A stretch of 64,000 nucleotides of DNA. Origin: Mayamaea pseudoterrestris (Eukaryota). Where the stretch lies: NCBI GenBank assembly GCA_027923505.1, contig BROI01000003.1, positions 1,240,001-1,304,000 on the forward strand. The letters run 5' to 3'. The notes beneath the pieces are model-generated. The model did no database searches. It had not been told where the DNA came from and saw only the letters and a list, made by a program, of their open reading frames with translations. The stretch's first letter is position 1. The number at the start of each line of letters is the position of its first letter. Positions 815 through 51,783 of this stretch are shown piece by piece. The position numbers and the translations under genes were made by a program.

Positions 815-828
815 CACACACACACACA
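815..828 (+). repeat. (CA)7 microsatellite at the left breakpoint of the tandem duplication
   Basis: gCACACACACACACAta read directly. Confidence 0.85.
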
Positions 829-1131
829 TAGCTGCTTACTCCGTTTCCATAGTGGAGCACTTCAGCACCTACGATGACTTTAATGCAAAAACGATCTCGT
901 GGACGATAACTAGTGCAAGTACAAGGACTTGAGTACAAGAAGAACTACGAGTGCGGAACATTTGGCTTGAAAATATTTGTCAGCGCCAGCCCTTTCCCAT
1001 TACTTCGTGAATGCTCGTCCAGTCAAAGATTAAGCCGTTCATCAATACCCAGCGCTTATGTAGCAATAGTCATTCGACATTATTATAAAACGCATAGTGC
1101 CTATTCATTTAGCACAACTTGTTGATACAAA

Positions 1132-2538
1132 CTATGGCGCCTTGACGCGAATATGTGCCCGCGGATGTCCCACGGCGCTGCCCAGCCACTTGCACAGCGC
1201 GGGAATGTAAAAGTAGCGCTCGCGCATGATGGCAACGTACTCGCTCGTGTAGTTGATCCCCAGCACGTACCACTGTCCCTCGCAGCGAATGGACGGCGGG
1301 TCGGGAGCGTTGAATATAAGAGTGCCGTATAGCAACACGACCATGCCCACTAGTTGGATCCAGCTGTATTCATTCCATGATTCGCCGTATTTGCCATTCG
1401 TAAGGACATAGAATATGAACAAGTCTGTGGCCCAGACGGTGACAGGCCGAAAGTTGTCGAGTATAGAATGCCAAACACTGCTCATATCCAGCGTGACTGT
1501 GGAATGTGCAGAGGTCAAAGGCAATAAAAACAGTGGTAAGTTGGCAAAAGTCTCGGGACATTAGAGAGGCCTCATGTACTTACTCAAAACCGCAAACAGG
1601 TTGTAGGCGAAAATTGTTCCAACATAGAAAGCAAACATGATCTGGATCGACGGCGTATCTTTGATCAGTTCCCATGTCGTAGCTGGATTCTCAAACGAGC
1701 CGCGATCACTTCCAGGGACAAGCATTGCAATCGGAGTCAGTACGACGGTGCAAATCAGTGTTCCCCAGAATCCCTCCATACCGAACAAGAGAAGCGGCGG
1801 CACCTTGAATGTTTCCGTCGTCATGACCTTTTCTTCGAATACAAACTGCAGCGACTGAATAAACGTTGCCAGCAGCATGAACAAAATACCCACCATCGTA
1901 TGGTTAGAGTCGTCGGCGATAGCCTTGCTGTTGGCGTTCCAGACCGCCGCAAGTCCAACCAATGTGAGCGCCACAACGTTCCATAGAACTCCAATCCATT
2001 GAAAGGAATACAATCGTTGACCCAGCATGGGTCGCTTCAGCAATGCGACAAATACAATCCCAGAACCTCGCAGCAGCTGATAGACACTGACATCCAGATA
2101 CAGCAGACCAATCATGGAAAATGCAGTCGCCAGCAAATCAAACATGGCAGGGATGCCCAAGTAGATCAACATCCAATTGGGAACGTGGTTTGGATTCGTC
2201 GATGCCGCATCCGCCGCGGCCGCAGCAGTCGCCACCAATGGCGTCGACTCCTCATCCGATGATTGTTGTTTCGTTGATATGTGTTTATAACCAGGAAACG
2301 GAAGCTTCCAATACACAATGATCCAGTGCAGCGGCAGTCCCAGGATCATGCCGACGAACATTCCCCACGTCAATGCCAATGGCCTATCGAACGAGTGTAT
2401 TTTGCCACTGTTTGTCACGCCCTCCAGTTCCATAATGACTTTGCTGAAAATGGAGCAAAGGGTGCCGGCCGTCACGGCAATCAGAAACAGCATGCGCTCG
2501 TACGGGCCTTCCCTCGTGACATGACCGTGTGACGACAT
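1132..2538 (-). CDS. SLC35F-like (DMT superfamily, nucleotide-sugar-transporter-like) membrane protein, copy 1; join(1584..2538,1132..1496)
   Basis: Multiple TM helices; IPAMFDLLAT, SVYQLLRGSGIVF, QFVFEEK, GMEGFWG, HSILDNFRPVTVW. The 87-nt GT-AG intron 1497-1583 joins the two ORFs in frame (AVL-I-TLDM). Confidence 0.85.
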
Positions 2539-2810
2539 AATATGGTTGCCTGCTGTTTGCTTTTTTGTAGACGAACGACAGTGGAGCTGTTCACGCTCTC
2601 GACTTGGTGATTGGACTTTGGTGGAATCTGGTTGACTGTGAGGTTGTCGGAAGATATGGCAAGGATCTCGAGTTTTCGAAAGAATGCTGAGATCCGACGA
2701 GACTTTGGCACGAATGAGAAGACATGAGCTACCGGTATCGGTATCTTACTCGCGCACTGTTACTTCCTTGCCTGGCTGACCGAACATGCCAATTTAAGAG
2801 ACTGTGACGG

Positions 2811-3059
2811 CTATAAATTCTCTAAGGCTTTTAGTTTAGTCTGTGCTACTGGACCCGAGTACCATAGTGTTCCTGGCGTTGTCGTCAGTTTCTCTACGAT
2901 GCGTCGCCGGGATGCATCATCCTTGTAGCGCTGCTCCGGCAAATACACGCCAGCTCCTTCATGCTTCAAACAGTCCATTGCAAACGTAGCACAAGACTGA
3001 CCAACACATGTTCGAAAGGACTGGTGGCCCTGCGTGATGCTGTATCCGCTGTCGTCGCG
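2811..3059 (-). pseudogene. Orphan duplicated 3' fragment of the saccharopine-dehydrogenase-like gene
   Basis: RDDSGYSITQGHQSFRTCVGQSCATFAMDCL...ENL*, paralogous to 5046-5296 and cut at the duplication junction. Confidence 0.8.
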
Positions 3060-3366
3060 CACATAGCTGCTTACTCCGTTTCCATAGTGGAGCACTTCAG
3101 CACCTACGATGACTTTAATGCAAAAACGATCTCGTGGACGATAACTAGTGCAAGTACAAGGACTTGAGTACAAGAAGAACTACGAGTGCGGAACATTTGG
3201 CTTGAAAATATTTGTCAGCGCCAGCCCTTTCCCATTACTTCGTGAATGCTCGTCCAGTCAAAGATTAAGCCGTTCATCAATACCCAGCGCTTATGTAGCA
3301 ATAGTCATTCGACATTATTATAAAACGCATAGTGCCTATTCATTTAGCACAACTTGTTGATACAAA

Positions 3367-4773
3367 CTATGGCGCCTTGACGCGAATATGTGCCCGCGGA
3401 TGTCCCACGGCGCTGCCCAGCCACTTGCACAGCGCGGGAATGTAAAAGTAGCGCTCGCGCATGATGGCAACGTACTCGCTCGTGTAGTTGATCCCCAGCA
3501 CGTACCACTGTCCCTCGCAGCGAATGGACGGCGGGTCGGGAGCGTTGAATATAAGAGTGCCGTATAGCAACACGACCATGCCCACTAGTTGGATCCAGCT
3601 GTATTCATTCCATGATTCGCCGTATTTGCCATTCGTAAGGACATAGAATATGAACAAGTCTGTGGCCCAGACGGTGACAGGCCGAAAGTTGTCGAGTATA
3701 GAATGCCAAACACTGCTCATATCCAGCGTGACTGTGGAATGTGCAGAGGTCAAAGGCAATAAAAACAGTGGTAAGTTGGCAAAAGTCTCGGGACATTAGA
3801 GAGGCCTCATGTACTTACTCAAAACCGCAAACAGGTTGTAGGCGAAAATTGTTCCAACATAGAAAGCAAACATGATCTGGATCGACGGCGTATCTTTGAT
3901 CAGTTCCCATGTCGTAGCTGGATTCTCAAACGAGCCGCGATCACTTCCAGGGACAAGCATTGCAATCGGAGTCAGTACGACGGTGCAAATCAGTGTTCCC
4001 CAGAATCCCTCCATACCGAACAAGAGAAGCGGCGGCACCTTGAATGTTTCCGTCGTCATGACCTTTTCTTCGAATACAAACTGCAGCGACTGAATAAACG
4101 TTGCCAGCAGCATGAACAAAATACCCACCATCGTATGGTTAGAGTCGTCGGCGATAGCCTTGCTGTTGGCGTTCCAGACCGCCGCAAGTCCAACCAATGT
4201 GAGCGCCACAACGTTCCATAGAACTCCAATCCATTGAAAGGAATACAATCGTTGACCCAGCATGGGTCGCTTCAGCAATGCGACAAATACAATCCCAGAA
4301 CCTCGCAGCAGCTGATAGACACTGACATCCAGATACAGCAGACCAATCATGGAAAATGCAGTCGCCAGCAAATCAAACATGGCAGGGATGCCCAAGTAGA
4401 TCAACATCCAATTGGGAACGTGGTTTGGATTCGTCGATGCCGCATCCGCCGCGGCCGCAGCAGTCGCCACCAATGGCGTCGACTCCTCATCCGATGATTG
4501 TTGTTTCGTTGATATGTGTTTATAACCAGGAAACGGAAGCTTCCAATACACAATGATCCAGTGCAGCGGCAGTCCCAGGATCATGCCGACGAACATTCCC
4601 CACGTCAATGCCAATGGCCTATCGAACGAGTGTATTTTGCCACTGTTTGTCACGCCCTCCAGTTCCATAATGACTTTGCTGAAAATGGAGCAAAGGGTGC
4701 CGGCCGTCACGGCAATCAGAAACAGCATGCGCTCGTACGGGCCTTCCCTCGTGACATGACCGTGTGACGACAT
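3367..4773 (-). CDS. SLC35F-like transporter, copy 2; join(3819..4773,3367..3731)
   Basis: Translation identical to copy 1 at offset +2235. Confidence 0.85.
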
Positions 4774-5045
4774 AATATGGTTGCCTGCTGTTTGCTTTTT
4801 TGTAGACGAACGACAGTGGAGCTGTTCACGCTCTCGACTTGGTGATTGGACTTTGGTGGAATCTGGTTGACTGTGAGGTTGTCGGAAGATATGGCAAGGA
4901 TCTCGAGTTTTCGAAAGAATGCTGAGATCCGACGAGACTTTGGCACGAATGAGAAGACATGAGCTACCGGTATCGGTATCTTACTCGCGCACTGTTACTT
5001 CCTTGCCTGGCTGACCGAACATGCCAATTTAAGAGACTGTGACGG

Positions 5046-5296
5046 CTATAAATTCTCTAAGGCTTTTAGTTTAGTCTGTGCTACTGGACCCGAGTACCAT
5101 AGTGTTCCTGGCGTTGTCGTCAGTTTCTCTACGATGCGTCGCCGGGATGCATCATCCTTGTAGCGCTGCTCCGGCAAATACACGCCAGCTCCTTCATGGT
5201 TCAAACAGTCCAACGCAAACGTAGCACAAGACTGACCAACACAGGTTCGAAAGGACTGGTGACCCTGCGTAATGCTGTATCCGCTGTTGTCGCGTC
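5046..5296 (-). pseudogene. 3' part of the saccharopine-dehydrogenase-like gene, separated from its 5' part by the copia insertion
   Basis: Removing the element and one TSD copy restores the frame ...HAMRIDVTRR|DNSGYSITQGHQSFRTCVGQSCATFALDCL..GVYLPEQ...ENL*. Confidence 0.85.
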
Positions 5297-5839
5297 TGCT
5301 GGGATCCCCGTTTTGGCCGACGAACAAAGCAACATTGAAAAGGACATCGACACAGTCCCAGCGGCACCAAGACACGGAACATCCCGTTCACGACCACACT
5401 CCTACGACGGCGAGAGTAGAAAGTCAGCCACTGGCCCAAACCCTACACACTTCACCGTACCCGAAGAATTCACGACTGACAACCGTAGAAAGACTACCAC
5501 AGGTACATCGAATACCGGAACCGGCGTACACAGCGAATGTTGGGACTCTACAGAGCGAAGCCGTGCAAACACTACCAGCAGTGAAGACCATACTGCCAGT
5601 TCTGTAGACGGACGAGAGCCATCTCACCTACGGGATGGCCAGTACAAAATGACACGACCGGTAGACAATATACATACGTATGAATGAGAAGCCACTCTTG
5701 GATGCGAAATCGACCGCTTCACTTTCGTCTCATTCTAGAGGATCTACTAACAATAGATTCAAAGTTTCCCCAGTCTTTTAGCGTTTAAACCGTCTTTTCT
5801 CCCTACTTCCGTACGGACCTTCATCTTGGATCTCAAGCA
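5297..5839 (+). repeat. 5' LTR (543 bp, TGCT...AGCA)
   Basis: Matches 15452-15994. One mismatch seen (A5354 / G15509). Confidence 0.97.
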
Positions 5840-6366
5840 AAGTAATTACTTGCCGATTGAACCAAGATCTTTTTACCAAGTTTCCAAAGCATTGAACAAA
5901 ACCGGACGCGGATTTCTTCAAGCCCTTTCTGTCAACCTCGAATTTCCAACGCTCTGCAGCAACAAGCGGAGTATTGAGTGAGCAAGAGCAAGCCTACAAG
6001 CAACCCTTTTGCCTTTATCTTTCAGTTTACCTCGAGTTGGATCAAGCGTTTGATCAAGGCCAACGTCGTCGAGCAGATTTCAAGTCTCCATCAGTTGAGC
6101 AGAACTACTTTACCTAGTCTGCCGAGCACTCTTCTTTCCAAGTCGCCTCTCACTCCACAAGTCACGCGCCTTCTTTACAGTTTTCTTCGTCGCTTCAACA
6201 CAAGCCGCCAAGTCTTTAATTCTTCACGACGCCTTCTACAAGTCGTCGTCCTCTTCACCAACATTACTTTACACGAGTTCAACCCTTCAAGTCTCCAATC
6301 GGTCGCTCCAGAAGGCCGCCCAGTAATCCGACTTACCGCCGCCGATCAAATTGCAAGCAATCAAGA

Positions 6367-7437
6367 ATGAGAGCGCATTTCAACCGAGTCCAACCCGCGC
6401 GACAGCTTTCGTCGTCTTTCGAAGCAAAAGACCTATCGCATCCAGTAACTCTCTACTTCCTCAAGAAGACTCGTTTCCTGCTTCAAAAGGACGAAGAAAA
6501 CAGACGTCAAGACTTGCAAAGACTTGCTGAAGTACCAGATATAAACACAGAGACGACGTGCGCTTGTTCTGTGTGCATCGCCAATACACAAACACACGTA
6601 CCCTCGCCAAGCAGCGACTCATCGCCAGCCAACGAGCAATTAGAGACATCGCCAACAAGCACGACGCATACTTGCCGATCAATCAATTCAATTCGCCAAC
6701 AAGAAGCAAATCAAGCGTCAGTTAGACAAGCGCATCGCCAAGACACAAGACCATCGCAACAAACTCTTCGCTCACAGAACGTTTCAAGCACTTACCAAGA
6801 AGCATCTCGCATCGCAACAGTTCAAAGCGTCGCAGACCGTCGTCAAGCACTTCTTCAACAACGAAACAGACAGCGACAAGCAAGTCAAGAGCGCGCATCA
6901 ACAACGCAACAAGCTTCGAACAATCTTCAACGCAATCGAATCACTGTTAGTCAAAGACGCAACCAACGACGCAACGAAACGAACAGCAATCGTCCTTACC
7001 AGCAGCGTTTAAGACAGCAACAAGCGAATCGAATCGTCACGCCAACCCGACAGCAAAACCGAACCTCCAATCCAACACTTCGAGTCCAGCCTCGCATCAA
7101 CGACACGCGCAACACTACAACTCATCATACACGCGATATAAACAGTCTTCAAGCTCAAGTAACTCGTTTAAATCATCTTCTTAATCAACAACAACGACAG
7201 CTGCACTTACAAGCTCAACGAAATCGACAAGTGACAAATCAACAACGTGTCCATCGTCGCGATCAACACGCTCAACAGTTCCACGCTCGTTCACGTTTTC
7301 AAACTCCGTCACATCAGCAACTCAATTGGCCACGTCAGCAACGTTTAGCTACCCCAAACCGTCAATCTCCATTCACTGACAACCACGTTAGCTATCAACG
7401 TCCGACCAATAGCCAAAACTTTTACTACTCATTCTAA
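6367..7437 (+). CDS. Extra upstream ORF inside the retrotransposon, 356 aa, Q/R/N/S/T-rich, function unknown
   Basis: Stop-free 1,071 nt between the 5' LTR and gag, ending 8 nt before the gag ATG. CxCxxC near the N-terminus; coiled-coil-like DINSLQAQVTRLNHLLNQQQ. Confidence 0.6.
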   Translation: MRAHFNRVQPARQLSSSFEAKDLSHPVTLYFLKKTRFLLQKDEENRRQDLQRLAEVPDINTETTCACSVCIANTQTHVPSPSSDSSPANEQLETSPTSTTHTCRSINSIRQQEANQASVRQAHRQDTRPSQQTLRSQNVSSTYQEASRIATVQSVADRRQALLQQRNRQRQASQERASTTQQASNNLQRNRITVSQRRNQRRNETNSNRPYQQRLRQQQANRIVTPTRQQNRTSNPTLRVQPRINDTRNTTTHHTRDINSLQAQVTRLNHLLNQQQRQLHLQAQRNRQVTNQQRVHRRDQHAQQFHARSRFQTPSHQQLNWPRQQRLATPNRQSPFTDNHVSYQRPTNSQNFYYSF

Positions 7438-7445
7438 TCGCAACC

Positions 7446-10400
7446 ATGACCGACCAACAAGAAGACATCACTATGAATGCGCTTTACAAAACGCCAAAGA
7501 TAACCAATACCATCGAAGCCTTTCCATCATGGTTCAACCAGTTCAAGAATCATGCAAGAATTGCAGGCTGCCGCCGTCCTATAAGAGGCAGTCGACCCGA
7601 GCACTTACCTGCTACCCAGAATGAAGTCATTACTGATCCCGCAGCTAACGCAACGGCAGACGAAATCCAAATCATTCGAAACAAACAAGCGGAACGCAAG
7701 CAGAATGAAACGCTCATGCAAATGCTTTCCATCGCATTGTCGCCATTCCCCGAGCTGAACGACCATCTTGTCGGAGCAGAATCAACAGAGTATCCAGGAG
7801 GCGAAGCTTGGAAGGTTATCAACGCATTGGAAATCAAGTTTTCTCCAGACAAGTTCATGGCACCAACACTTTACCGACGAAGCATTCAAAATCTCAAGCT
7901 CGAACGACCAACAGCAAACCCTCAAGACCTCATCGACCTCATGCAATCGCAAGCCATCAAGTTCAACCAAACACTTCTTGCAGAAGACCTGATGGCTACG
8001 CTCATGAACAAGCTGCCGCCTCAATACTGCCTCGCTCTAGCGCAAGAGCAAAAGACCAAGCAACGCGCTCTGACCAAGACCGAAATGGAGGGCGTCGTGT
8101 CGACTATCTACCAAACGATTTACGCAGCAGAAGATGAAGAAGCTTTAATACAAGGAGTCAACGAGATTGTTCTATATGCAGCACAACCAGAACCGCCGCA
8201 ACAAGAAACTTCACGCCAACAAAACACTCGTCAGCATCAAGCGCCGCCAACTCGCAATGAACGCCCGCAAACCAACTATAACAACACGCGAAATCCGCCA
8301 TCATTCAAATGCTACCTTTGCCATCAACCGTATCATCGAAGTGCCGACTGCTTTGAAAGAGTCGAAAACGCCCATCGTCGTCCTCGCGGATGGAATACTC
8401 GCCTGTCAATCGAAGCTCGTCGTCAATTGGAAGATGAAGAAGCACGAGAGCAACAAGAGCGGGGTTTAGAACGCCCAAGAGAGCGTCCTCGCAATTCAAA
8501 TCGACAGCAAGACCGTCGTCTTCCTCAAGATGATCAGCAAGAAGACCGTCGTTATCGCCAGAATCGCAACAACGAGCGCACAAGAGACCAACCAAGAGAC
8601 AACGATTATCGTCGCCGAGATCATCAAGAGCAACCACGTCAACTTGAGCATCAAAACCATCGTCAAGAGCCTCACCCGCGAACCATCATGCGTGAGCAAG
8701 TGCCTCGTCAAGCGCCATTACTACTCGAACAAGGACTTGCAGCAGTACACGAAGCTCTTCAGTTGACTCAGCGATCACATCGCTCCTCTTCGCAACGTTC
8801 CTCTTCAAGCCGCCGTTATCCTTCTACAAACTCAAGGAGCGAATTTGCCTTCATACATGCCGACTTAGTTGATGAAACTTATCCAGCACTCCCTACTCGC
8901 ACTCCTGCAGCTCCAACACCGTCGCCTTTATATCCACAAACCAATTGGCGTGGTCTACAGCCACATCAGATTAAAGACTATTCATCGGAAGACGATTCAT
9001 CAATCGAGCAGCCTCCAGCTCCACCAACAACTCGAACGAAACGCACAAGACCAACGTCAAGCACCACCAACAAGAAGCAAGCCGTCGAATTAGTGTCTTT
9101 AACAAAGTCGTCCGCAACGAGTGAGTCACCAAAGCCAAAGCCAAATCTTCCATCGTCAAATCTCAATGGACGCAGTTGGGCATCCATATGCGGCGACCCA
9201 AGCACAAGTGATGAAGAAGAAAGTGACTTTGAAGACGAATTTGTCAACAGCAAGACTCCAACCGAGCAAGAACGGAGACACTTCAGCACTTTAATTCAAA
9301 ACATTGAAACACTTGAGCAAACGAAGCAAGAAGATGGGAAGGGTCTGCTATTTCACAAACAAGACGAGCCAAGTAAATCAGAGCAACAAGTCCACACATC
9401 AATTGAAGAGCAAGCAAGCAACCTCAACGATTCCTACCATGGCTACAACGCTACGCAAAGCACCAATAACGTCACAACGAGCAGCGACACAACTGAAGCC
9501 ACTAATCTTGAGCCAACAACCACAAACGCCAACGAATGCGACACACATGAGCGCACCGACAACGTCACAACTTGCAGCGCCGACAAGGATTCAACTCCAA
9601 CAACAAGTCCTCCAATTGAATTGAAAGAAGAAGAAAGTGTAGAAGAACTCGTAGCGACAAGCTTTGCGCAATGGCGAGGAGACTGGCTACCCAAAGACTT
9701 CCTTACAGCAGACGAGCTAAAAGAAGTCGAGCACTTGTATCCAACCTTTGCTCCAAGAATTCCAAACAACATTCCGCCACAAGCCAACTCGAATGATCTA
9801 CCGCCATTCCACGTCTTGCAAAGCGTCCTGTTCATCAATCCCCCACTATACGAGCTGTCAGACGCCATAAAAGTGATGTTTGCCGATCTACAAGAGTTCT
9901 TTCTCGAGCACATAGCCATGCCACACGCCTTTACGCATCAAGAAGCAATCGACTCAACGCGAGACCGCTACTACCAATACACTGGTCTCCGAGTCTGGGA
10001 TACAGAGCGAGTCGAAATCATCATGAGCAATCCTGGCGACGAAGAAACCAACTCAGATGACGCAACTTACGATTCAGATGCGTACCCGAGCAGTCAAAGC
10101 TACAGATCAGACTCCTTCACCTATGAAGGCTATCAAGCTTTTCTTCAATCCTGGGAGCACCGCAATCAAGCGCCTGAGCATGTCGTTTCTCGAGCGCGCT
10201 ACGAAACCACCATCCAACAAATAAAGAAGGATGAGCAAGACATCGAGACAAACCCTGCAAGCGCCGCACGACTGTGCATGCTTGAACGTTTCAGCCAAAG
10301 GCGTTTCCTCAAGGATCTCATCTTCTGGTTCGAAGAAATCAATGAGGAAGACGAAGAAGCACTGTTTGACGAACGTTTAAAAGTTGTCATTGATCATGCA

Positions 10401-13400
10401 ATTGCCAAGGAAGTCAAAAGACGAGCACTCGAAGGAACATTGCGAACGCGCAGCACATTAGAAGAAGACCTCCGCAACGTCGGCTTGGAATTCAGCAAAG
10501 ACTTAACGACTTTCAACTACCTCGATCAATTTCCAGAAAGCGAGAGAGAAGCAGAACGACAGGAACTACTAGACCTCCTTGCAGAACGCGAGGCAAGAGA
10601 CGCACGCGAAGCAGCAGAGCAACACGCACGCAGATACCAGCCTCCAGCTCGCAATTCAAATCAACTGCAACACGAAAGCCCAAATCCATTCAATGCATTG
10701 AGATACAACGTAAGCGCCAATGCCTACGCGGTTCGAAGAAACAACAACAACAACAACGAATTCGCCCTCGCAACTATCCACGAATCCATTACGTGTCCAA
10801 CCAACTTGGATATCCTGAAGCATCCTGAAATCTTCATTGGCGATACCGCAGCAACCGTCGACTGTACACCTCATCCAGAAGGCCTGTTCGATGCCCGTCA
10901 GATACGAAATGAAGGCATCACAATGGGAAATCAAACAGTCGCCGACATTCAAACCATGGCGAAGCTTCGCGTCGACGCCTGCGATCGATTTGGCAATCCT
11001 CTCTACCAAGGAGTCCTCAACAACGTTGCTTATGCGCCCGAATGCGCCTTCAATCTATTCAGCATCACTCAACGTTTAGCGACAGGATGGAACCTCCGCA
11101 GCGGCAACAAGAAGATCTGGCTAGAAAAAGAAAACCAACACTCCATCGTCTTCGACTTGCTGATTCCTACCAAGCGAGGTCATCTTTACTGCATGTACTT
11201 GAGACGAGTCATTCCAATGCCATTAGTTCAAGCGCCTCGCAACGAGTTTGCCATGATTGCAGCCAACTTGCTTCCGACACGCCGTCTCGCCTACAAACAA
11301 ATGCACGAATTGTGCGGACACCAAAGCCCCCAAATGACACTCGCAATTGCCAAGCACTTTAGATGGGAAATACACGGATCGTCCAAGAACAAGTGTGTTG
11401 CCTGCGCAATAGGCAAGGCCAAGAAGCAACCGGTCCCTCAAATATCGCCGCGCATCCGAGCCACAGAGCCAGGCGAGCGACTTTACATGGACCTCTCTTC
11501 ATTTAGAGTCATGAAGAGCAAATCAGAACTTGGATTCTCCTCCATACAACCGCAATGGCAACTCATTGTCGACGAAGCGACAGGCTACAAGCACAGCGCC
11601 ATGTACCGCACCAAAGGGGAAATCGTTGAGCCGACATGCCAGATGCTCTACTATCTCATCCAACGCGGCATTACAGTCAAATACCTTCGAATGGACAACG
11701 CCGGAGAGAACCAAGCATTAGCCAAGTCAATGAAGAGCTCCGCTTGGAAATTGCCGATCGAGATCGAATGGACTGCGAGAGACACCCCGCAACAAAACAG
11801 TCTTGTCGAAATTGGATTCCCGACGCTTACCAATCGCACGCGAGCCATATTCACAGCTCAAAACATTCCACCTTCAATCCGCTTTCATTTGGCACCGTCT
11901 GCTTTCGAATATTCAACCGACATGGACAATCTTGCTATCGTCGAGCACAAGGGCACTCTAGCAACTCGATTCAAACACTTCTACGGCACCGAGTCGCCCA
12001 TCATCAAGAATCTACACCCATACGGCGAAGCAGTCACTGTTGTGATATCCGGATTAAAGTCTCATCTAGCACCAAAAGGATTCCAAGGCATCTTTGTCGG
12101 CTACAGCAAAAATCACCCGAGCAGATGCTATCGCGTCTTCAATCCCGAGACCAATCGCGTACATGACGTCAAGGACGTCACATTTCTTCACCGACCGTAC
12201 TTTCAACCTAAGCCCCCGCGTCACGAAATCGTCACTACACCACTCATTGACGTCATTTCCTGCAACAGCAACTACAGCAGTCTTTTCTCACCGCATCACC
12301 ATGGGAATCTGCCGCCGCCACCCGCAAAATTTCCAGACGACAAGAACAAGAAGAAACCAACGTTCCACACAAAGCGCCTCCTAACACGATCTACCTCGCT
12401 GATTGATCTGACCGACCATGACACCCCAGAAGCATCGGAAGCCTCACCAACAAACTCAATCCAATCAGCCCCCGACACTTTCAACCCAACTGCACTTACA
12501 ATATTCCAACCAAATGCACATGCACCAGCAAGCGCGCAAGAAGAAGTGACGGATGCACCCAATACGCCTCAATCTCCAAGAGCGCATCCTACAATTACCG
12601 ATCGACAAGCCAACGCAATACAAAGACACATTGCTCGATTCTCATCAAACCACTCACGAGGATCACAAAGCTCAAGGTCATCTACACGCTCCACCCGATC
12701 CAATCCTGGTGGCTTGCGTCGCACCACACGAGAGACAAGAACACCAACTCGATTCGATCCGACCAATCCTGCAACATTCGCCGCCATACTTGCCGCACTC
12801 GACGAACGATTTGGCAATCGCACAACACTATACAACGCATGCGACAACGGCTATGACAGTGACCGATCAGCTGAATCAGAATATGACAAGTACTGCGAGT
12901 CTGACGAGCAAGAATTCCACCACCAACCATATGACGACCAGCAAGACGAAGAATCAGTCTCATCGAACGGGTCCATACCTCCTCTGGTACCTCGAAATGA
13001 CGACTACAGCAGCGCAGGTGACAGCGAAGCTCCTGAACTATGGGGCAACGAAGACAGTTTCTGTTTGCCTACACAAGATCAACGTTACGAAGCTGCCTAC
13101 GAGCCATCACACGAGCGCGACGACGACTCCGTATCATTAAATGATTCCATACCCGACTTAGTCCCAAGAGCCGACGACCATAGCAGTGCAGGAGACAGTC
13201 AAGCAATCGAGCTGTGGGACATTAATGCAGACGACGATGAATATGAAGAAGAGCTCACCCGAGCAAATGGACGTCCCGCACCTCAACCAGCCGCACCTCA
13301 AGCGTCTATCGAAACAGTGATCACGACTCGAGTCTCCAACGTTTGCAGCCCGACTCTTCAACTCGGGAAGGGTTTTAACCCAGATGACCATGAAGATAAA

Positions 13401-15842
13401 ACATCTATACCAGTCACCGAGACACAAGACGAAAGCGACGAGTCGACAAACCAGCAAATCGATCTACCGCCAGAACAACTTGCCATCATGGCCGATCTCC
13501 TACACGTTCCCTCTTCAACGATTCTCGACGACACACATACATCCGTCCATGATTCGCCATACCAACAAGAAAACGACCATGAAGACCAACAAAGCTTCCA
13601 TAGCGCCGACTTGATCCCTGCAGAAATCCATTTAAACCTCGACGAGACAAGCGAACCACCGAACGAGCCCACGAATTCCACCTTTGAATACTTCTTCCGC
13701 GACATGCCCAGCGCGCCGTCTAGTGCAAGCATCTTTTACGACGCGTCTCCCATTCCCACACTCGGAGAGTTTGCGTGCGTTGGAGCAGGCATTGGAGGCG
13801 GATTCATCAACACAGAAGAGTTGCATACGATCAAGTTCAAGCAAGCCATGGGCAGTCCAGAGCGTCCTGAATGGATCAAGGCAATACACAAGGAGAAGGA
13901 CAACCTCATCAAGCACGGCACATTCCAAGTTGTTTCACGCAGCATGATACCACCTCGAACAAAGTGCATGACAAGCAAGTGGGTGCTCAAGAAGAAGTCA
14001 AACGGCACGTACAAGGCACGAATCACAGCAAGAGGCTACGAGCAAGAGGACGGTATCCATTATGACAGCAACAAGATCTCATCTCCAGTAGCATCGCCAA
14101 CGTCCATCAAGATTGTCACAACTCTTGCCATCATGATGGGATACGAGCCACACATCTTCGATATAAGCGGAGCATTCCTCTACGGCACGTTTGACGAAGG
14201 CCACGAATGTTACATGCACATACCTGAAGGTTTCCAAGACGACTATCCACCCAATCACGTTTGGCTACTCAAGCGCACGCTATACGGAACTAAACAAGCT
14301 GCGCGAGCGTTCTGGGACCAACTGGTTAAAGCACTTCGACAGATAGGATTTGAACGAAGTGTTGCCGACCCTTGCCTGTTTTACAAACAAGATGGCGACC
14401 GCCACATGCACATCGTCTCGCACATCGACGATCTCCTGTTAAGCGGCCCTCCGGACATGATTGAAGACACCAAGAAACAACTTCTACAGCACTTTGACGG
14501 CGAAGACGGTGGACCAATGGACGAGTACATTGGTTGCAAGATTGAACGAGGCGAAAACTACATGCGATGGACGCAACCAGTCCTCCTGCAAAGCTTACAA
14601 GACGAGTTTACAATCCCTCCGCCGAGGCGCCAAGAAGCATGCGTCCCTGCTCAACCCAAGTGCGCCCGTCGCGTCAAAGAAGGCGATCCTTCCGCTCTAA
14701 GCAACAACAAGCAGACGACCCTTCGACAAGGCCTAGGCAAACTACTTTACCTCGCCCGATGGTCTCGACCAGAGACACTCTACGCCATAAATGACTTATG
14801 CCGAGCCATGAAGACGGGAGAAGAAGCCCACGAGAAAGCCATGTACCGAGCCATCCGCTACATGTGTGCAACACCAAAGAGAGGCAGACTCTTCCTCCCA
14901 AATCGCGAGTATACTGGCCCAAACCACGTCTTTATCATCAGCGCCAGAAGCGATTCAGATTACGCCAAGGATCCCGACAAGCACAAGAGTCATTCCGGTG
15001 GCATCACCTTCCTTGAAGGCGTTCCCGTCGCTGAAGTTTGCCGCTTACAGAAACACGTCTCCCTTTCAGTAACTGAGTCCGAAATGTCCGCAGGTACCGA
15101 CGTCATACAAGACATGCTCCACACACATGCCATTCTTCAGTCAATAGGCCTCAAAGTCCAACTACCAATGGTCCTGGAAATGGACAACAGCGGCGCAATC
15201 GACATCATCAACAGCTGGAAGACAGGAGGGCGCACACGCCATGTTGACGTACGCCATAACTTCGCTCGAGAGCTCAAAGAACACGGCATCCTCCTTGTCA
15301 AGTACATTGAAACCAAGAAGAACACGGCCGACATCTTCACCAAGAACTTGGACCTTTCTACCTTCAATCGCCATGCACGGATCCTAGTTGGAGAGGATGA
15401 GTACTACAAGATGGACTCAATGCCTGAAACTATCGCTCTCCAAGGGAAGGGTGCTGGGATCCCCGTTTTGGCCGACGAACAAAGCAACATTGAAAAGGAC
15501 ATCGACACGGTCCCAGCGGCACCAAGACACGGAACATCCCGTTCACGACCACACTCCTACGACGGCGAGAGTAGAAAGTCAGCCACTGGCCCAAACCCTA
15601 CACACTTCACCGTACCCGAAGAATTCACGACTGACAACCGTAGAAAGACTACCACAGGTACATCGAATACCGGAACCGGCGTACACAGCGAATGTTGGGA
15701 CTCTACAGAGCGAAGCCGTGCAAACACTACCAGCAGTGAAGACCATACTGCCAGTTCTGTAGACGGACGAGAGCCATCTCACCTACGGGATGGCCAGTAC
15801 AAAATGACACGACCGGTAGACAATATACATACGTATGAATGA
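7446..15842 (+). CDS. Gag-Pol polyprotein, 2,798 aa (Gag zinc knuckle, aspartic protease, integrase, RT, RNase H)
   Basis: CYLCHQPYHRSADC (~8310); FIGDTAAT protease (~10842); HELCGH..CVAC, LYMDL, RMDNAGE, QQNSLVE, GIFVGY integrase; YKARITARGYEQ, FDISGAFLYG, LYGTKQA, SHIDDL RT (~14421); SDSDYA, EMDNSGA, RHVDVR, ADIFTK RNase H. Confidence 0.97.
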   Translation: MTDQQEDITMNALYKTPKITNTIEAFPSWFNQFKNHARIAGCRRPIRGSRPEHLPATQNEVITDPAANATADEIQIIRNKQAERKQNETLMQMLSIALSPFPELNDHLVGAESTEYPGGEAWKVINALEIKFSPDKFMAPTLYRRSIQNLKLERPTANPQDLIDLMQSQAIKFNQTLLAEDLMATLMNKLPPQYCLALAQEQKTKQRALTKTEMEGVVSTIYQTIYAAEDEEALIQGVNEIVLYAAQPEPPQQETSRQQNTRQHQAPPTRNERPQTNYNNTRNPPSFKCYLCHQPYHRSADCFERVENAHRRPRGWNTRLSIEARRQLEDEEAREQQERGLERPRERPRNSNRQQDRRLPQDDQQEDRRYRQNRNNERTRDQPRDNDYRRRDHQEQPRQLEHQNHRQEPHPRTIMREQVPRQAPLLLEQGLAAVHEALQLTQRSHRSSSQRSSSSRRYPSTNSRSEFAFIHADLVDETYPALPTRTPAAPTPSPLYPQTNWRGLQPHQIKDYSSEDDSSIEQPPAPPTTRTKRTRPTSSTTNKKQAVELVSLTKSSATSESPKPKPNLPSSNLNGRSWASICGDPSTSDEEESDFEDEFVNSKTPTEQERRHFSTLIQNIETLEQTKQEDGKGLLFHKQDEPSKSEQQVHTSIEEQASNLNDSYHGYNATQSTNNVTTSSDTTEATNLEPTTTNANECDTHERTDNVTTCSADKDSTPTTSPPIELKEEESVEELVATSFAQWRGDWLPKDFLTADELKEVEHLYPTFAPRIPNNIPPQANSNDLPPFHVLQSVLFINPPLYELSDAIKVMFADLQEFFLEHIAMPHAFTHQEAIDSTRDRYYQYTGLRVWDTERVEIIMSNPGDEETNSDDATYDSDAYPSSQSYRSDSFTYEGYQAFLQSWEHRNQAPEHVVSRARYETTIQQIKKDEQDIETNPASAARLCMLERFSQRRFLKDLIFWFEEINEEDEEALFDERLKVVIDHAIAKEVKRRALEGTLRTRSTLEEDLRNVGLEFSKDLTTFNYLDQFPESEREAERQELLDLLAEREARDAREAAEQHARRYQPPARNSNQLQHESPNPFNALRYNVSANAYAVRRNNNNNNEFALATIHESITCPTNLDILKHPEIFIGDTAATVDCTPHPEGLFDARQIRNEGITMGNQTVADIQTMAKLRVDACDRFGNPLYQGVLNNVAYAPECAFNLFSITQRLATGWNLRSGNKKIWLEKENQHSIVFDLLIPTKRGHLYCMYLRRVIPMPLVQAPRNEFAMIAANLLPTRRLAYKQMHELCGHQSPQMTLAIAKHFRWEIHGSSKNKCVACAIGKAKKQPVPQISPRIRATEPGERLYMDLSSFRVMKSKSELGFSSIQPQWQLIVDEATGYKHSAMYRTKGEIVEPTCQMLYYLIQRGITVKYLRMDNAGENQALAKSMKSSAWKLPIEIEWTARDTPQQNSLVEIGFPTLTNRTRAIFTAQNIPPSIRFHLAPSAFEYSTDMDNLAIVEHKGTLATRFKHFYGTESPIIKNLHPYGEAVTVVISGLKSHLAPKGFQGIFVGYSKNHPSRCYRVFNPETNRVHDVKDVTFLHRPYFQPKPPRHEIVTTPLIDVISCNSNYSSLFSPHHHGNLPPPPAKFPDDKNKKKPTFHTKRLLTRSTSLIDLTDHDTPEASEASPTNSIQSAPDTFNPTALTIFQPNAHAPASAQEEVTDAPNTPQSPRAHPTITDRQANAIQRHIARFSSNHSRGSQSSRSSTRSTRSNPGGLRRTTRETRTPTRFDPTNPATFAAILAALDERFGNRTTLYNACDNGYDSDRSAESEYDKYCESDEQEFHHQPYDDQQDEESVSSNGSIPPLVPRNDDYSSAGDSEAPELWGNEDSFCLPTQDQRYEAAYEPSHERDDDSVSLNDSIPDLVPRADDHSSAGDSQAIELWDINADDDEYEEELTRANGRPAPQPAAPQASIETVITTRVSNVCSPTLQLGKGFNPDDHEDKTSIPVTETQDESDESTNQQIDLPPEQLAIMADLLHVPSSTILDDTHTSVHDSPYQQENDHEDQQSFHSADLIPAEIHLNLDETSEPPNEPTNSTFEYFFRDMPSAPSSASIFYDASPIPTLGEFACVGAGIGGGFINTEELHTIKFKQAMGSPERPEWIKAIHKEKDNLIKHGTFQVVSRSMIPPRTKCMTSKWVLKKKSNGTYKARITARGYEQEDGIHYDSNKISSPVASPTSIKIVTTLAIMMGYEPHIFDISGAFLYGTFDEGHECYMHIPEGFQDDYPPNHVWLLKRTLYGTKQAARAFWDQLVKALRQIGFERSVADPCLFYKQDGDRHMHIVSHIDDLLLSGPPDMIEDTKKQLLQHFDGEDGGPMDEYIGCKIERGENYMRWTQPVLLQSLQDEFTIPPPRRQEACVPAQPKCARRVKEGDPSALSNNKQTTLRQGLGKLLYLARWSRPETLYAINDLCRAMKTGEEAHEKAMYRAIRYMCATPKRGRLFLPNREYTGPNHVFIISARSDSDYAKDPDKHKSHSGGITFLEGVPVAEVCRLQKHVSLSVTESEMSAGTDVIQDMLHTHAILQSIGLKVQLPMVLEMDNSGAIDIINSWKTGGRTRHVDVRHNFARELKEHGILLVKYIETKKNTADIFTKNLDLSTFNRHARILVGEDEYYKMDSMPETIALQGKGAGIPVLADEQSNIEKDIDTVPAAPRHGTSRSRPHSYDGESRKSATGPNPTHFTVPEEFTTDNRRKTTTGTSNTGTGVHSECWDSTERSRANTTSSEDHTASSVDGREPSHLRDGQYKMTRPVDNIHTYE
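15442..15451 (+). other. Polypurine tract of the LTR retrotransposon
   Basis: AAGGGAAGGG immediately 5' of the 3' LTR. Confidence 0.85.
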
Positions 15843-15994
15843 GAAGCCACTCTTGGATGCGAAATCGACCGCTTCACTTTCGTCTCATTCTAGAGGATCT
15901 ACTAACAATAGATTCAAAGTTTCCCCAGTCTTTTAGCGTTTAAACCGTCTTTTCTCCCTACTTCCGTACGGACCTTCATCTTGGATCTCAAGCA
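15452..15994 (+). repeat. 3' LTR (543 bp)
   Basis: Direct repeat of 5297-5839, followed by TSD GCGTC. Confidence 0.97.
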
Positions 15995-17109
15995 GCGTCG
16001 AGTCACATCAATACGCATCGCGTGCGTTTCGCCCGTCTTGTGCTCCGCGTCCTGCGCGCGCAAGTAGGCGTCCGTCAGAAACACCAGCGGCTGCGAAAAA
16101 TCCGCCATGAACTGCGAGAATGTTCGCGATCGCCACCATGCGCGAGGGACAATCGCGACGAGCATGCCAAGCATGCTGTTCCATACATCAGGCGCCGTTC
16201 CCATGGCCGCCACCGAGTTGCCCGTCGCGTTCAGCGCCTGCGGAACAGTCGCTGCCTCTGGAAATGGCCAGGCAAACACTTGTTGGGTGCCAACGAGCGA
16301 GTTGTTAAAGTTGACGCGGCCGAGCAACCGGCCACTCAGTGACTCGTAGGCACGCAGCTGACCTTCGTAATGTACAAATTGATTGTGCCACTGCCGCCAA
16401 GACCAGATGTAAAGTACTGAAAGTACACGTTATGCACGCCATCATGTTCCGATGGAACTTTCAAGTCACTCGACACTTCTTGCAGCAACGCACTCGCCGC
16501 TTCCATGGCGAGCACATTCGACATACCCGGAAACGCGCCAGCCGCAACGATGCAAGTCTTGTTTCTCATGACGGCCTTTTCATGATGCGATAGACTTGCC
16601 TGCAGATACTCTAGTGGGTCGGAAACGTCCACGTAAACCTTGCATTGCTTCGACTCCAAGACACGTCGCAGAATCGCTGGCGGTTGATCAACATAGTATG
16701 GACCAGCCGTATGAATGACGCAGTCGCAAGAATCAATCAAATCTTGCAACTGATCGTCTTGACTATTTACTGCTGGTGGCCACTTCCATATATTGACGTT
16801 TTGCTGCAGCGAAACAACGGAAACGCGAGGATCATTCATGACTTGCTGCAAAATCGAGTCTCGTTTCCGTCGCTGGGATGAATCATGACGAGCCACCAAC
16901 GTGACACGACACTCTGGCTCCTTCAACAATAAATGTTCCGCAACGGATGTTCCGATTTTGCCCAAACCTCCAATCAAGACAAAGTGGGGCGATGAGATTG
17001 ATGCTAACGGCGGTTGATGATGCAGATGTGAAGGCGTTGCCTGCAGAGCCTCGACCGCTCGCAGAGACCAAAAGAGGCAGACACAGACACAAAAGGCTTT
17101 TAATCGCAT
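15995..17109 (-). pseudogene. 5' part of a saccharopine-dehydrogenase-like oxidoreductase (resembles plant At1g50450 type); frameshifted near 16364 and interrupted by copia
   Basis: Signal-like N-terminus; Rossmann VLIGGLGKIG; VIHTAGPY, YVDVSD, AGAFPGMSNVLA, GLGGSG. Continues only in another frame as GQLRAYESLSGRLLGRVNF...PEA...GTAPDVWN...MRIDV. Confidence 0.85.
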
Positions 17110-42765: not shown

Positions 42766-44469
42766 TCAGACTTTTAGACGATGGCCGATACTGGTTCCAT
42801 CTTCACTTGCTCCGCCATTTGAGTCACCATTGGTAGCGCCATTTTCATTGCCGCCCCCGCTGGTTCCTTCACTACCGGCACGTTTGCCAGTTCCGCCATC
42901 GCTCTTTCCACCACCTCCGGCGCGACTACCAGTTTTACCTGAACCACCGACACCTCCTTCACCATTGTCCTGTCCTTCGCTTCCTCCATCACCAGCACGT
43001 TCGCCAGTTCCGCCGCCGCCGCCGCTTGCTCCAGAGTCTCCTTCAACGCCTCCCGCGCGACTGCCGGTTTCTCCATCCCCACCGGTACCTCCTTCACCAG
43101 TGTCGCTGCCTTCTTCTACACCGCTACTGCCCGTTTCGCCAGCTTCCCCATTTCCTCCTTCACCATTGTCTGTTTCTGTATCTTCTTCACCACCACCGGC
43201 GCGACTGCCAGCTTTGCCACCCGACGCCCCTCCGCCAACGGATTCGATGGGGTCATGCTGGCCCACCTTTAACGATCGACCGAATGTTTGAGCGCGACGA
43301 CGACCGACTCCCTTAATGGTCTTCGGACCTTCGCGCGTTTCGGGTTCCTTTGGCTCCTTCTCCTCGGGAAACTCCGGTTCCTTCGGCAGCTTGGGTTCCG
43401 GCATGTCTCCAGGCGATTCCTTCGTCACCTCGTCGTCATTGCGGATAGAGGCGAGGCGACGACGCTCTCCCTTGCTGGCCCTCGGTCCTTCGCGCGTTTC
43501 AGGCTCCTTTGGCGCTTCCTTGTCCATTGGCGGCTCCTTTGGCTCTTTGGGATTTTTCGATTCCTTCTCGACAGGCTGGAGTTGGCGACGACGCTCTCCC
43601 TTGATAGCCCTTGGTCCTTCGCGCGTTTCAGGTTCCTTGGGCACTTCCTTGTCCATCGGCGGCTCGGGAGCTAGCGGTTCCTTTGGCTCCGGTTCCTTAA
43701 ACTTGGGTTCCTTGTCGACGGGCGGTTCTTCGAAGTGAAGCTGGCGAAAACGACGCTCTCCCTTGATTGCTCGAGGGCCTTCAGGTGGCTCTGGTTCCTT
43801 TGGCGCTTCCTTGTCCATCGGCGGCTCGGGAGCTAGCGGTTCCTTTGGCTCCTTGAAAGCTTCCTTGGGCTCCTTCTCGACGGATCCTTCGGGATGAAGC
43901 TGGCGAAAGCGACGTTCACCCTTGATTGCTCGAGGACCTTCAGGCGACTCTGGTTCCTTTGGCCCCTCCTTGTCGGCTGGTCCTTCCGGCGCTTCCTTGC
44001 CAATGGGTCCCTCGGGTTGCAGCTGGCGACGACGCTCGCCCTTGACGGTCCGTGATGGACCTTCCGGGGATTCCTTCTCCGCTTCTTCCTTGGGCGACTC
44101 CTTGTCGACGGGCGCTTGCGCATGAAGCTGACGCCGCTCGCCCTTGACAGTCCGTGATGGATCTTCCGGCGATTCCTTCTCCGTTGGTGGTTCCTTGGGC
44201 GGCGACTCCTTGTCGACGGGCGCTTGCGCATGAAGCTGACGACGGCGCTCACCTTTCGGCGCCTTTGGCTGACTCACCATCAAGTGACGACGACGACCCT
44301 TGGTTGTCTTGGAGCTTTGCGGTGGCTCGGGCTGCTGCACCATCAAAAAGCGGTGCGCGGAGGATCGACGCAAGGTGGTGAAGAGTGACTTGCTTGGAGC
44401 TGCACCATCCTGCGACGCGGCTTGCGATGAAGCAAGCAGCAAGCAAAGAAAAGGAGCGAAAGGTTTCAT
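42766..44469 (-). CDS. Secreted repetitive polyprotein (567 aa) with ten RXL sites; candidate biosilica/cell-wall peptide precursor
   Basis: Signal peptide MKPFAPFLCLLLASSQA. K/E/P-rich units each ending in KG(E)RR..RxL. G/E/S/T-rich C-terminal domain. Confidence 0.8.
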   Translation of the reverse strand: MKPFAPFLCLLLASSQAASQDGAAPSKSLFTTLRRSSAHRFLMVQQPEPPQSSKTTKGRRRHLMVSQPKAPKGERRRQLHAQAPVDKESPPKEPPTEKESPEDPSRTVKGERRQLHAQAPVDKESPKEEAEKESPEGPSRTVKGERRRQLQPEGPIGKEAPEGPADKEGPKEPESPEGPRAIKGERRFRQLHPEGSVEKEPKEAFKEPKEPLAPEPPMDKEAPKEPEPPEGPRAIKGERRFRQLHFEEPPVDKEPKFKEPEPKEPLAPEPPMDKEVPKEPETREGPRAIKGERRRQLQPVEKESKNPKEPKEPPMDKEAPKEPETREGPRASKGERRRLASIRNDDEVTKESPGDMPEPKLPKEPEFPEEKEPKEPETREGPKTIKGVGRRRAQTFGRSLKVGQHDPIESVGGGASGGKAGSRAGGGEEDTETDNGEGGNGEAGETGSSGVEEGSDTGEGGTGGDGETGSRAGGVEGDSGASGGGGGTGERAGDGGSEGQDNGEGGVGGSGKTGSRAGGGGKSDGGTGKRAGSEGTSGGGNENGATNGDSNGGASEDGTSIGHRLKV

Positions 44470-49795: not shown

Positions 49796-50396
49796 GTACT
49801 GATTATCTTTCGGGTCTCAATAAAGATATAAAACTGTTAGCGCCTGTGCTATTGCTTGTAGTCAGCTTGAGCGATGAATCTATCCAAGTCATGCGGTCAT
49901 CGCGCGCCGCGCCGTCGCGGCGGAAGTGCAGTGCTGCTACGACACGTACCCGACATCACGATTTGCTATCACACCGAAGCTGGCATGTTTGTACAACAAC
50001 AGTCGCTAGAGTATGATATATTAGAAGCTTCGAAGCTATCATACGTACGAAAGAAGCTTGCCAGGTTCAAAAATGCTAGGGTATCATGGAGGAACTATGA
50101 GATATCTAATCAATCTGCATGCTTCCCTCCCATAAGACCGGCTTTGAAAAGGCGTTCGCGTGAGCAACAGCTCTTCAGCATAAGGATAACGAGAAGGTAT
50201 ACTAGTATAGTATCAGACTAGATAAAGAGTATGTGCAAGATGTCTCTAAGTGTTTGTTAGCAAGTAGCAAGTGTACTAGTATTTACAGGGGAAGCTTGAT
50301 GGCAAGCCAATGCATGACATCTTCACTCCTCACGCAGAGTGCGCCACGCAGCACCGCATCAGCAGAGTGTATTGTGACGACGAAAGGGGTAGAGTA

Positions 50397-51041: not shown

Positions 51042-51783
51042 TTCGATCGTGTTTGCGCATTGACAACGCCAGAATGACCAATAAATAAATTGGCCGACAA
51101 TGTCTACTGCAGGTCCACGATCACATTAGTGCTAGTCCTCTACCGGTACAGTACCTATGCATCCATTAGGCTCGTCGAGTTTGCTAAATCTGATGTGGAT
51201 GGAAGGTGCCTTTAATCGAACCTTGGTGTGAGGTGTGAGGTGTAGCACCTTTCGCTTGAAGCAATTGCTCACCCTCGACTACTCCTTCTACTGATGCTAG
51301 CTTAACTTTAAAGTTAGGAGTAGCGATGCTTGGCGGCTTATATAGTGTCTTACCTCCATTTATCATGCCTCTATTGAGCGAGCATTCGTAACGTTCCTCC
51401 TTTCTTGTGAACCGACTGCATAACGTTTGAATGAGGCTGTACCGAGGCCCTTTCTGTTCCCCCATGGTTGCTTCTTATTGGCATGACCGTGCCGAATTAT
51501 GCTTCCTTCGTCGAAGGCGGCAGTTTCCACCGTTGCTTTGCTCTAGCGTTCGCTCAGATGTACTGTCGTTTAGCAAAAGTCGCTTTGACGATCTCTGAAG
51601 AGCAGACTGAGACTCGCTTGCGCTTCGAAACCGGACAAAGGAATAGTCGCGCGCATCTTCACAACCTCTGGATGAATCTCCATCCATTCAAACCCTTCCA
51701 TTGATCCTTTTTGGTCGTTGTTGCTTTCATTGCATCAGTTCTCTATATATTGCCGCCTACACTGACATTCACCATTTACCATC

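Follow-up and report, generated by a model that had tools for sequence, protein, structure and literature searches.

A perfect palindrome in place of a tRNA primer-binding site in a protist Ty1/copia retrotransposon, and its possible role in priming between two RNAs

The window, by which is meant the whole 64-kb stretch of DNA that was analysed, contains a single complete Ty1/copia LTR retrotransposon in which the first base after the terminal CA of the 5′ LTR is also the first base of a perfect 12-nt palindrome, AAGTAATTACTT. Since the palindrome adjoins the last LTR base, where minus-strand synthesis has to begin, this is the position of the primer-binding site (PBS), and the features that would mark a tRNA-type or a Tf1-type PBS are missing from it. 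Palindromes are also conserved at the corresponding junctions of environmental relatives, where they differ in sequence through compensatory changes, and in these elements the adjoining U5 and leader sequences pair with one another. We suggest that the palindrome is a functional replacement for the PBS, and that it most likely pairs with a second RNA of the element, the cut partner RNA then acting as primer; the probability of this reading is placed slightly below even odds, at about 0.45. The start of reverse transcription is a defining step of every LTR retroelement, and to our knowledge only two solutions for its priming are established, namely a host tRNA and the Tf1-type fold-back of the transcript's own 5′ end. 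If the proposal is correct, it would represent a third priming mode of LTR retroelements, after tRNA priming and the cis self-priming of Tf1.

The element is 10,698 bp in length (5297-15994; Table 1), and its assignment to Ty1/copia follows from the domain set of ORF2, in which Pfam matches to Pol_BBD, SH3_retrovirus (the integrase SH3-like domain) and RVT_2 (E = 4e-42) are accompanied by a zinc knuckle. The stop codon of ORF2 lies 390 nt inside the 3′ LTR, and a Pfam search with ORF1 returned no family. At 2798 aa, the ORF2 polyprotein is about twice as long as is usual for copia (about 1450–1500 aa in relatives); roughly 1100 aa of low-complexity sequence precede the protease, and integrase and RT are separated by a long insert. 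An earlier note on this DNA had described the element as intact and recently inserted, and this description stands: the two LTRs differ by one mismatch, the 2798-aa gag-pol frame with its RVT_2 domain is open, and the family is multicopy in public sequencing runs. Eight coded public runs, none of them listed as RNA, contain part of the stretch, and contigs of four of these were compared. All four contain multiple copies of the family, with an LTR depth in one of them (X1) of about 10 times the flank depth. Over 5627-5949, which spans the LTR border, the border-bridging contigs of three coded runs show zero listed differences; because all are near-identical family copies, these contigs are uninformative on variation at the junction. 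Apparently intact and recently active, the window element would therefore provide a practical test case for priming.

Table 1. Features of the retrotransposon and its borders (positions are those of the window)
Feature	Position	Strand	Basis or remark
Target-site duplication (TSD) GCGTC, 5′ copy	5292..5296	+	Identical 5 bases at 15995-15999
5′ LTR, 543 bp, TG...CA	5297..5839	+	99.8% identity to 15452-15994
U5 arm of U5–leader hairpin (final 17 nt of LTR)	5823..5839	+	MFE pairing with 5852-5868
Perfect 12-nt palindrome AAGTAATTACTT at the PBS position	5840..5851	+	Sequence reading and palindrome scan
Leader arm of U5–leader hairpin	5852..5868	+	MFE fold and duplex energies
Second short palindrome AAGATCTT inside leader arm	5863..5870	+	Read from sequence
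ORF1, 356 aa, Q/R/N-rich	6367..7437	+	Open frame
ORF2, 2798-aa gag-PR-INT-RT-RNase H polyprotein	7446..15842	+	Pfam and translation
Polypurine tract AAGGGAAGGG, adjoins 3′ LTR	15442..15451	+	
3′ LTR, 543 bp	15452..15994	+	One mismatch vs 5′ LTR
Target-site duplication GCGTC, 3′ copy	15995..15999	+	Directly after 3′ LTR

The earlier note had reported the palindrome from the sequence, and the scan bears it out at the coordinates in Table 1. Because the 3′ LTR is followed by the TSD instead, the palindrome is internal sequence at the PBS position. Its central pair is AT, its self-duplex has a predicted energy of −10.8 kcal/mol, and the 12-mer forms no stable hairpin. Palindromes of 12 bases are common in the window (20 observed vs 15.5 expected), so the argument rests on position, and a palindrome would start precisely at the LTR border with a probability of about 1 in 4096. 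Within the element no second copy of the palindrome was found, its 8-mer core, GTAATTAC, occurring only at 5842.

The sequence features of known primers were sought around this border. Neither TGG nor GGTTATG is present in 5840-5900, as the earlier note had also seen. A canonical tRNA-primed Ty1/copia PBS for the 3′ end of tRNAiMet, that is, TGG together with about 8–15 nt of complement to a tRNA 3′ end, located 0–5 nt from the LTR, was not found, TGG being absent from 5840-5868. The absence of a Tf1-type complement from the LTR was likewise upheld: the LTR at 5297-5839 has no complement to the leader at 5840-5900 of at least 8 nt in Watson-Crick pairs, or of at least 10 nt when G-U pairs are admitted. 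An Rfam scan of 5200-6500 detected nothing tRNA-like and no other family at the site, and its one sub-threshold miRNA match lies elsewhere than the palindrome. A scan for tRNA genes found none in the 64-kb window and none in the 33 of 79 related loci (see below) that were scanned.

Relatives of the element were found through its RT–RNase H part, which in a protein search returned 274 proteins at E ≤ 1e-10, mostly metagenomic. Database proteins are 40–48% identical to the window RT–RNase H, the best being 47–48%. Profile A1, made from 24 of the related proteins plus the query, was used to retrieve 79 metagenomic loci (L001-L079) with RT–RNase H identities of 37–47% and E values of 1e-80 to 1e-169; no related loci were found in viral contigs. 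In five of these loci two LTR copies fix the LTR end, and in all five the terminal CA leads directly into a perfect 12-nt palindrome: AACTTTAAAGTT in L049, TACTTCGAAGTA in L013 and L042, AACTTCGAAGTT in L056 and TTCTTGCAAGAA in L016. With the window element, this amounts to perfect palindromes in 6 of 6 cases and in five different sequences.

Over the 79 loci as a whole, 51 LTR-to-internal junctions were available, and 42 of them have a perfect 12-nt palindrome. Five of the six pairs are kept in a further six junctions, four of six in two (L032 and L034, each with four pairs and a G-T), and a 10-nt palindrome is found in one (L059). Four of the six junctions with one broken pair have the central CpG changed to TpG or CpA, a change that the decay of copies would be expected to produce. 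The loci supply 10 distinct perfect 12-mers, the one in the window being the eleventh, and about two in five junctions have a palindrome that is lengthened to 14 nt by the last A of the LTR. In a quick RT tree of the metagenomic relatives and the window, from which the palindrome-bearing loci L049, L055, L056, L064 and L071 were dropped for short or interrupted RT matches, palindrome variants occur in separate lineages and CACTTCGAAGTG occurs in two distant ones. The window RT forms a long branch (1.85) that the tree does not place firmly.

Three further palindromes were considered as variants and rejected: that at L038:182 lies in coding sequence, while those at L032:350 and L040:592 lie downstream of the junctions at L032:179 and L040:133 in the same loci. 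In L064, where the LTR ends in GA rather than CA, a unit of about 104 nt is present twice in tandem; it comprises the end of U5, the leader and, between them, the palindrome TAATTCGAATTA, at 11861-11872 and again at 11965-11976. Several loci (L005, L008, L023, L030, L046 and others) are contigs of about 4.6–5.2 kb with identical ends or with an LTR that runs straight into the next PBS. Such contigs are not evidence of circular DNA, because assembler collapse of two LTRs would be expected to give them.

Many of the junctions had been picked by their palindrome before a control by gag and U5 motif was made. Since many sites had been found in this way, the control scanned the remaining loci with a weight matrix derived from the 16 bases that precede the border. 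It yielded 11 good U5-end matches without a palindrome, all of them after the RT frame and none (0/11) with a gag-like frame downstream, six of the 11 having at least 450 nt of downstream sequence. By comparison, gag follows 33 of the 39 palindromic sites, and most of the other six have too little sequence. From their surroundings, the 11 palindrome-free ends may be read as 3′ LTR-to-flank junctions, which would tie the palindrome to the LTR-to-internal junction and not to the LTR end itself. It is hard to see how a functionless chance palindrome, with ordinary priming simply overlooked, could account for these data. The count of 20 such palindromes in the window and the lack of significance, taken alone, of the hairpin described below would suit that explanation, but the position-specific probability of about 1 in 4096, and the presence of palindromes with compensatory changes at 42 of 51 relatives' junctions against 0 of 11 LTR ends without gag, make it scarcely credible.

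The pattern of substitution within the palindrome was assessed in a gap-free alignment (A3) of 38 distinct sequences, from which the window was excluded because the MAFFT alignment (A2) had misplaced it. Watson-Crick pairing occurs in 98.2% of the 228 palindrome cells of A3. Two-sided changes are seen in four of the six pairs (18 cells) and one-sided changes in none of the six; the covariation score was matched by 0 of 500 shuffles, and slid registers pair in only 35–49%. The innermost pair varies among CG, TA and GC across these relatives, and the central tetranucleotides (TCGA, TTAA, TGCA, TATA and AATT) are self-complementary in every variant. Conservation with compensatory changes in relatives was the check that the earlier note had put forward, and it came out positive; it therefore supports a non-tRNA function at the PBS position that is based on self-complementarity, and strongly opposes a tRNA primer. 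At the level of sequence, the fact that compensatory evolution reaches even the central bases suggests that two molecules pair here. R1, a covariance model derived from the junction sites of the relatives, did not match the window site (5816-5881) at E values up to 10; three weak matches elsewhere (E 3.6–6.9), one of them in a coding frame, were dismissed as chance. Because R1 misses it, the window palindrome is best regarded as an analogue at a homologous position, not as a demonstrable sequence homologue.

Could a host RNA nevertheless be the primer? One could conceive of the palindrome as a dimerisation or packaging signal only, with a tRNA half, a tRNA fragment or a small RNA pairing with part of it and with the adjoining leader. 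Internal tRNA regions do serve as primers in Drosophila copia and Ty5. FunCo1, according to the passage on it in PMC5445492, reportedly uses an internal region of tRNA-Lys. Against such a primer, all eleven of the different 12-mers are perfect palindromes, which a tRNA-complementary site need not be (about 1 in 4096 for each), and as many palindromic host RNAs would be needed as there are variants. Moreover, A3 has no conserved non-palindromic extension after the 12-mer, and TGG is absent. For these elements a tRNA primer is very unlikely, and the broader class of host-RNA primers, disfavoured by the same palindromic variants, is improbable.

A second alternative would keep the reaction on one molecule. 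The RNA would be cut right after the palindrome, and the 3′ end of the resulting mini-hairpin would snap back to prime the copying of U5 in cis. The geometry is suitable, as base 12 pairs with base 1, which adjoins the last base of U5; yet a hairpin leaves the central three to four bases unpaired, and these are self-complementary in every variant. Predicted energies also speak for two molecules: 12-mer self-duplexes range from −10 to −21 kcal/mol, whereas the isolated hairpins amount to 0.0 kcal/mol in four of the five 12-mers tested, the fifth, CGCUUCGAAGCG, folding weakly at −2.5 kcal/mol. Snap-back priming is thus quite unlikely. The earlier note had proposed non-canonical priming, by either a cleaved fold-back or a second genomic RNA; the second of these routes fits the data better, while the fold-back is disfavoured by the self-complementary central four bases and by the lack of hairpins in the isolated 12-mers.

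It is also conceivable that selection acts on DNA, where the palindrome could be bound symmetrically by a dimeric protein of the element or the host, or could serve as a cruciform or processing site of a DNA intermediate, with priming achieved by other means. Palindromes are typical of protein sites, and the exclusive use of Watson-Crick pairs, without a single G-U in the 228 cells of A3, would be in keeping with a constraint of this kind. A protein site, however, should keep its sequence, and here four of six pair positions change while the symmetry is kept. The site is furthermore internal, away from the ends that are used by integrase, and the absence of any PBS would be left unexplained. 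A constraint on DNA therefore seems distinctly improbable.

The preferred reading, pairing between two RNAs of the element, also draws on the sequences that flank the palindrome. The earlier note had described a hairpin centred on the LTR boundary, and an imperfect one is present at 5823-5868, where a 7-bp stem (ATCTTGG/CCAAGAT) and additional inner pairs give −12.4 kcal/mol; on its own it is weak (z = −1.81), with 9 of 200 shuffles folding as well. In the MFE fold of the window, the downstream strand of the stem pairs with U5 and not with the palindrome. The second palindrome inside the leader arm, AAGATCTT, may be a chance feature. For 38 sites, the final 22 bases of U5 were paired in silico with the 30-base stretch that follows the palindrome, in all combinations, and the most stable duplex of each combination was taken. 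Duplexes of U5 with its own leader average −14.4 kcal/mol vs −9.8 kcal/mol with foreign leaders, and 0 of 10,000 permutations reach the mean of the own pairs. The group therefore has a stem between U5 and the leader that co-evolves and places the palindrome in its loop. The window duplex, at −11.8 kcal/mol, ranks 11 of 38, with 10 of 37 foreign leaders equal or better, and the window hairpin is supported by analogy with the relatives rather than by its own values. With RNAalifold, the gap-free A3 gave the outer four palindrome pairs only and no U5–leader stem, because the spacing varies, and for this reason duplex energies of the individual sequences were used.

The RNA-level steps that we infer, namely dimer formation, cleavage and priming in trans, would proceed as follows. 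The palindrome would be displayed in the loop of the stem formed by the U5 end and the leader, and two element RNAs would pair through their identical palindromes, either in a loop–loop contact or as an extended dimer. Pairing with a second RNA copy is considered most likely because self-complementarity is kept to the very centre, where a hairpin has no need of it, and the partner would be the same sequence on another molecule because the LTR has no leader complement of at least 8 nt. One strand of the RNA duplex would subsequently be cleaved where the palindrome ends on its 3′ side, probably by the RNase H of the element. In Tf1, RNase H cuts an RNA duplex, and in copia and Ty5 the initiator tRNA is cut; the proposed cleavage would be analogous to both. 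The new 3′-OH would face the base that immediately follows U5 in the partner RNA and would prime minus-strand strong-stop DNA, so that a primer RNA ending in ...AAGUAAUUACUU-3′ would continue into DNA whose first base is complementary to the final base of the LTR. Dimerisation and priming would be one and the same contact. Of course, one sacrificed and one intact RNA would be needed, because a cut after the PBS detaches the PBS from the body of that RNA.

The earlier note treated the feature as unprecedented, and in this it was mistaken, as a published analogue exists in the GalEa copia elements of fungi. The sections of Donnart et al. 2017 (PMC5445492) devoted to these elements describe a "Conserved Hairpin Site" in place of a PBS, with a 10-nt palindrome, ACTGATCAGT or ACTAATTAGT, at the 5′ LTR border that includes the last A of the LTR. 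A second near-copy, CHSeq2 (an inverse-complementary 9-mer), is described there 2–41 bp downstream, with a fixed A/A mismatch. In the same sections the authors report no Tf1-type complement and no fitting model, and leave the mechanism open; they also place GalEa, the diatom CoDi groups and Ty on one copia branch ("branch 1" for fungal GalEa). The term "Conserved Hairpin Site" is otherwise used in the corresponding part of a bivalve TRIM study (PMC6934838). Full-text literature searches returned no account of a palindromic PBS in copia elements of diatoms or other protists, and no paper that explains how such a site works, and primer sites are not discussed in the main-text portion of the diatom CoDi paper (Maumus et al. 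2009).

The window element and fungal GalEa are thus alike in being copia elements without a tRNA-type PBS, in having a palindrome at the 5′ LTR border and in their predicted potential for a hairpin around the junction. They differ in that the window palindrome has 12 nt and begins after the CA, whereas the fungal one has 10 nt and includes the last A of the LTR; in that the window has no second copy, its stem being formed by U5 and the leader in contrast to the CHSeq2 of fungal GalEa; and in that 11 variants with compensatory changes occur here, against two main sequences reported in fungi. The host also differs, being a fungus there and a protist here (a diatom according to the earlier note, from which the CoDi label also comes; the tree compares the window with metagenomic relatives only). 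The metazoan GalEa PBS motif, as given in the relevant passage of PMC5445492, has no exact match in the 79 loci, while matches with one or two mismatches, taken regardless of their placement relative to LTR ends, are scattered through them.

Other known systems share single features with the proposed one. Drosophila copia and Ty5 employ half-tRNA priming, in which a non-palindromic PBS matches the anticodon arm of the initiator tRNA. Like the window element, they belong to the copia superfamily, lack TGG at the PBS and obtain a primer by RNA cutting after annealing (proposed in the present case); unlike them, the window element has a palindrome at the PBS position and no GGTTATG. Tf1 and sushi resemble the proposed system in that they need no tRNA and draw the primer from the RNA of the element itself, by cleavage of an RNA duplex beside the PBS, with a U5 stem close by. 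The Tf1 PBS, however, is non-palindromic, and its partner in cis is formed by the first 11 bases of the transcript to which it belongs, whereas no LTR complement of this kind, down to 8 nt, is found here, and Tf1 belongs to Ty3/gypsy rather than Ty1/copia. In HIV-1, a stem-presented palindrome, the DIS, pairs two genomic RNAs. Palindrome-mediated pairing of two genomic RNAs is likewise described for the PAL sequences of Ty1 in the pertinent part of PMC6844567, and the Tf1/sushi self-priming of Ty3/gypsy elements is summarised in sections of PMC5445492 and PMC6934838. The retroviral DIS and Ty1 PAL are separate from the PBS, and a tRNA primer is used, whereas the palindrome described here occupies the PBS position itself and no other PBS is visible.

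The window case is a variant of a published but unexplained arrangement, and the observation is real and more than chance. Judged by the sequences of the relatives, the palindromic arrangement is no fungal oddity but is widespread in environmental copia elements. A wider and more tentative proposal is that an entire lineage, comprising the window element, the environmental relatives and possibly fungal GalEa, has dropped host tRNA primers, and that of two co-packaged genomic RNAs paired through the palindrome, one is cut and then primes the copying of its partner. If so, diverging palindromes could serve as family-specific codes against cross-priming. For annotation, the consequence is that elements of this kind, although intact, will be rated as defective by tools that demand a tRNA PBS.

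Two other 12-nt palindromes in the window resemble the relatives' variants, namely AGCTTCGAAGCT at 50026-50037 and, at 51304-51315, a palindrome identical to that of L049 (AACTTTAAAGTT). Each is flanked by an inverted repeat of 7–8 bp (GTATGAT/ATCATAC and CTACTCCT/AGGAGTAG, respectively), and both are located upstream of a P-type ATPase gene, in non-coding DNA whose surroundings contain neither an LTR-like repeat nor pol. They may be relics of non-autonomous elements or may have arisen by chance.

In the 5′ flank of the retrotransposon, self-comparison revealed a perfect tandem of a 2235-bp unit (825-3059 and 3060-5294, 99.7% identical), and the insertion point is the very end of the second copy. 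Contigs of two of the public runs (X1 and X2) diverge from the window at 5294/5295 and continue into sequence that resembles the flank beyond the 3′ LTR without matching it exactly. This may represent an empty-site allele, the insertion then being polymorphic, or a paralogous copy. Short, diverged tandem repeats with 82–89% identity were also found by self-comparison at 43588-44241.
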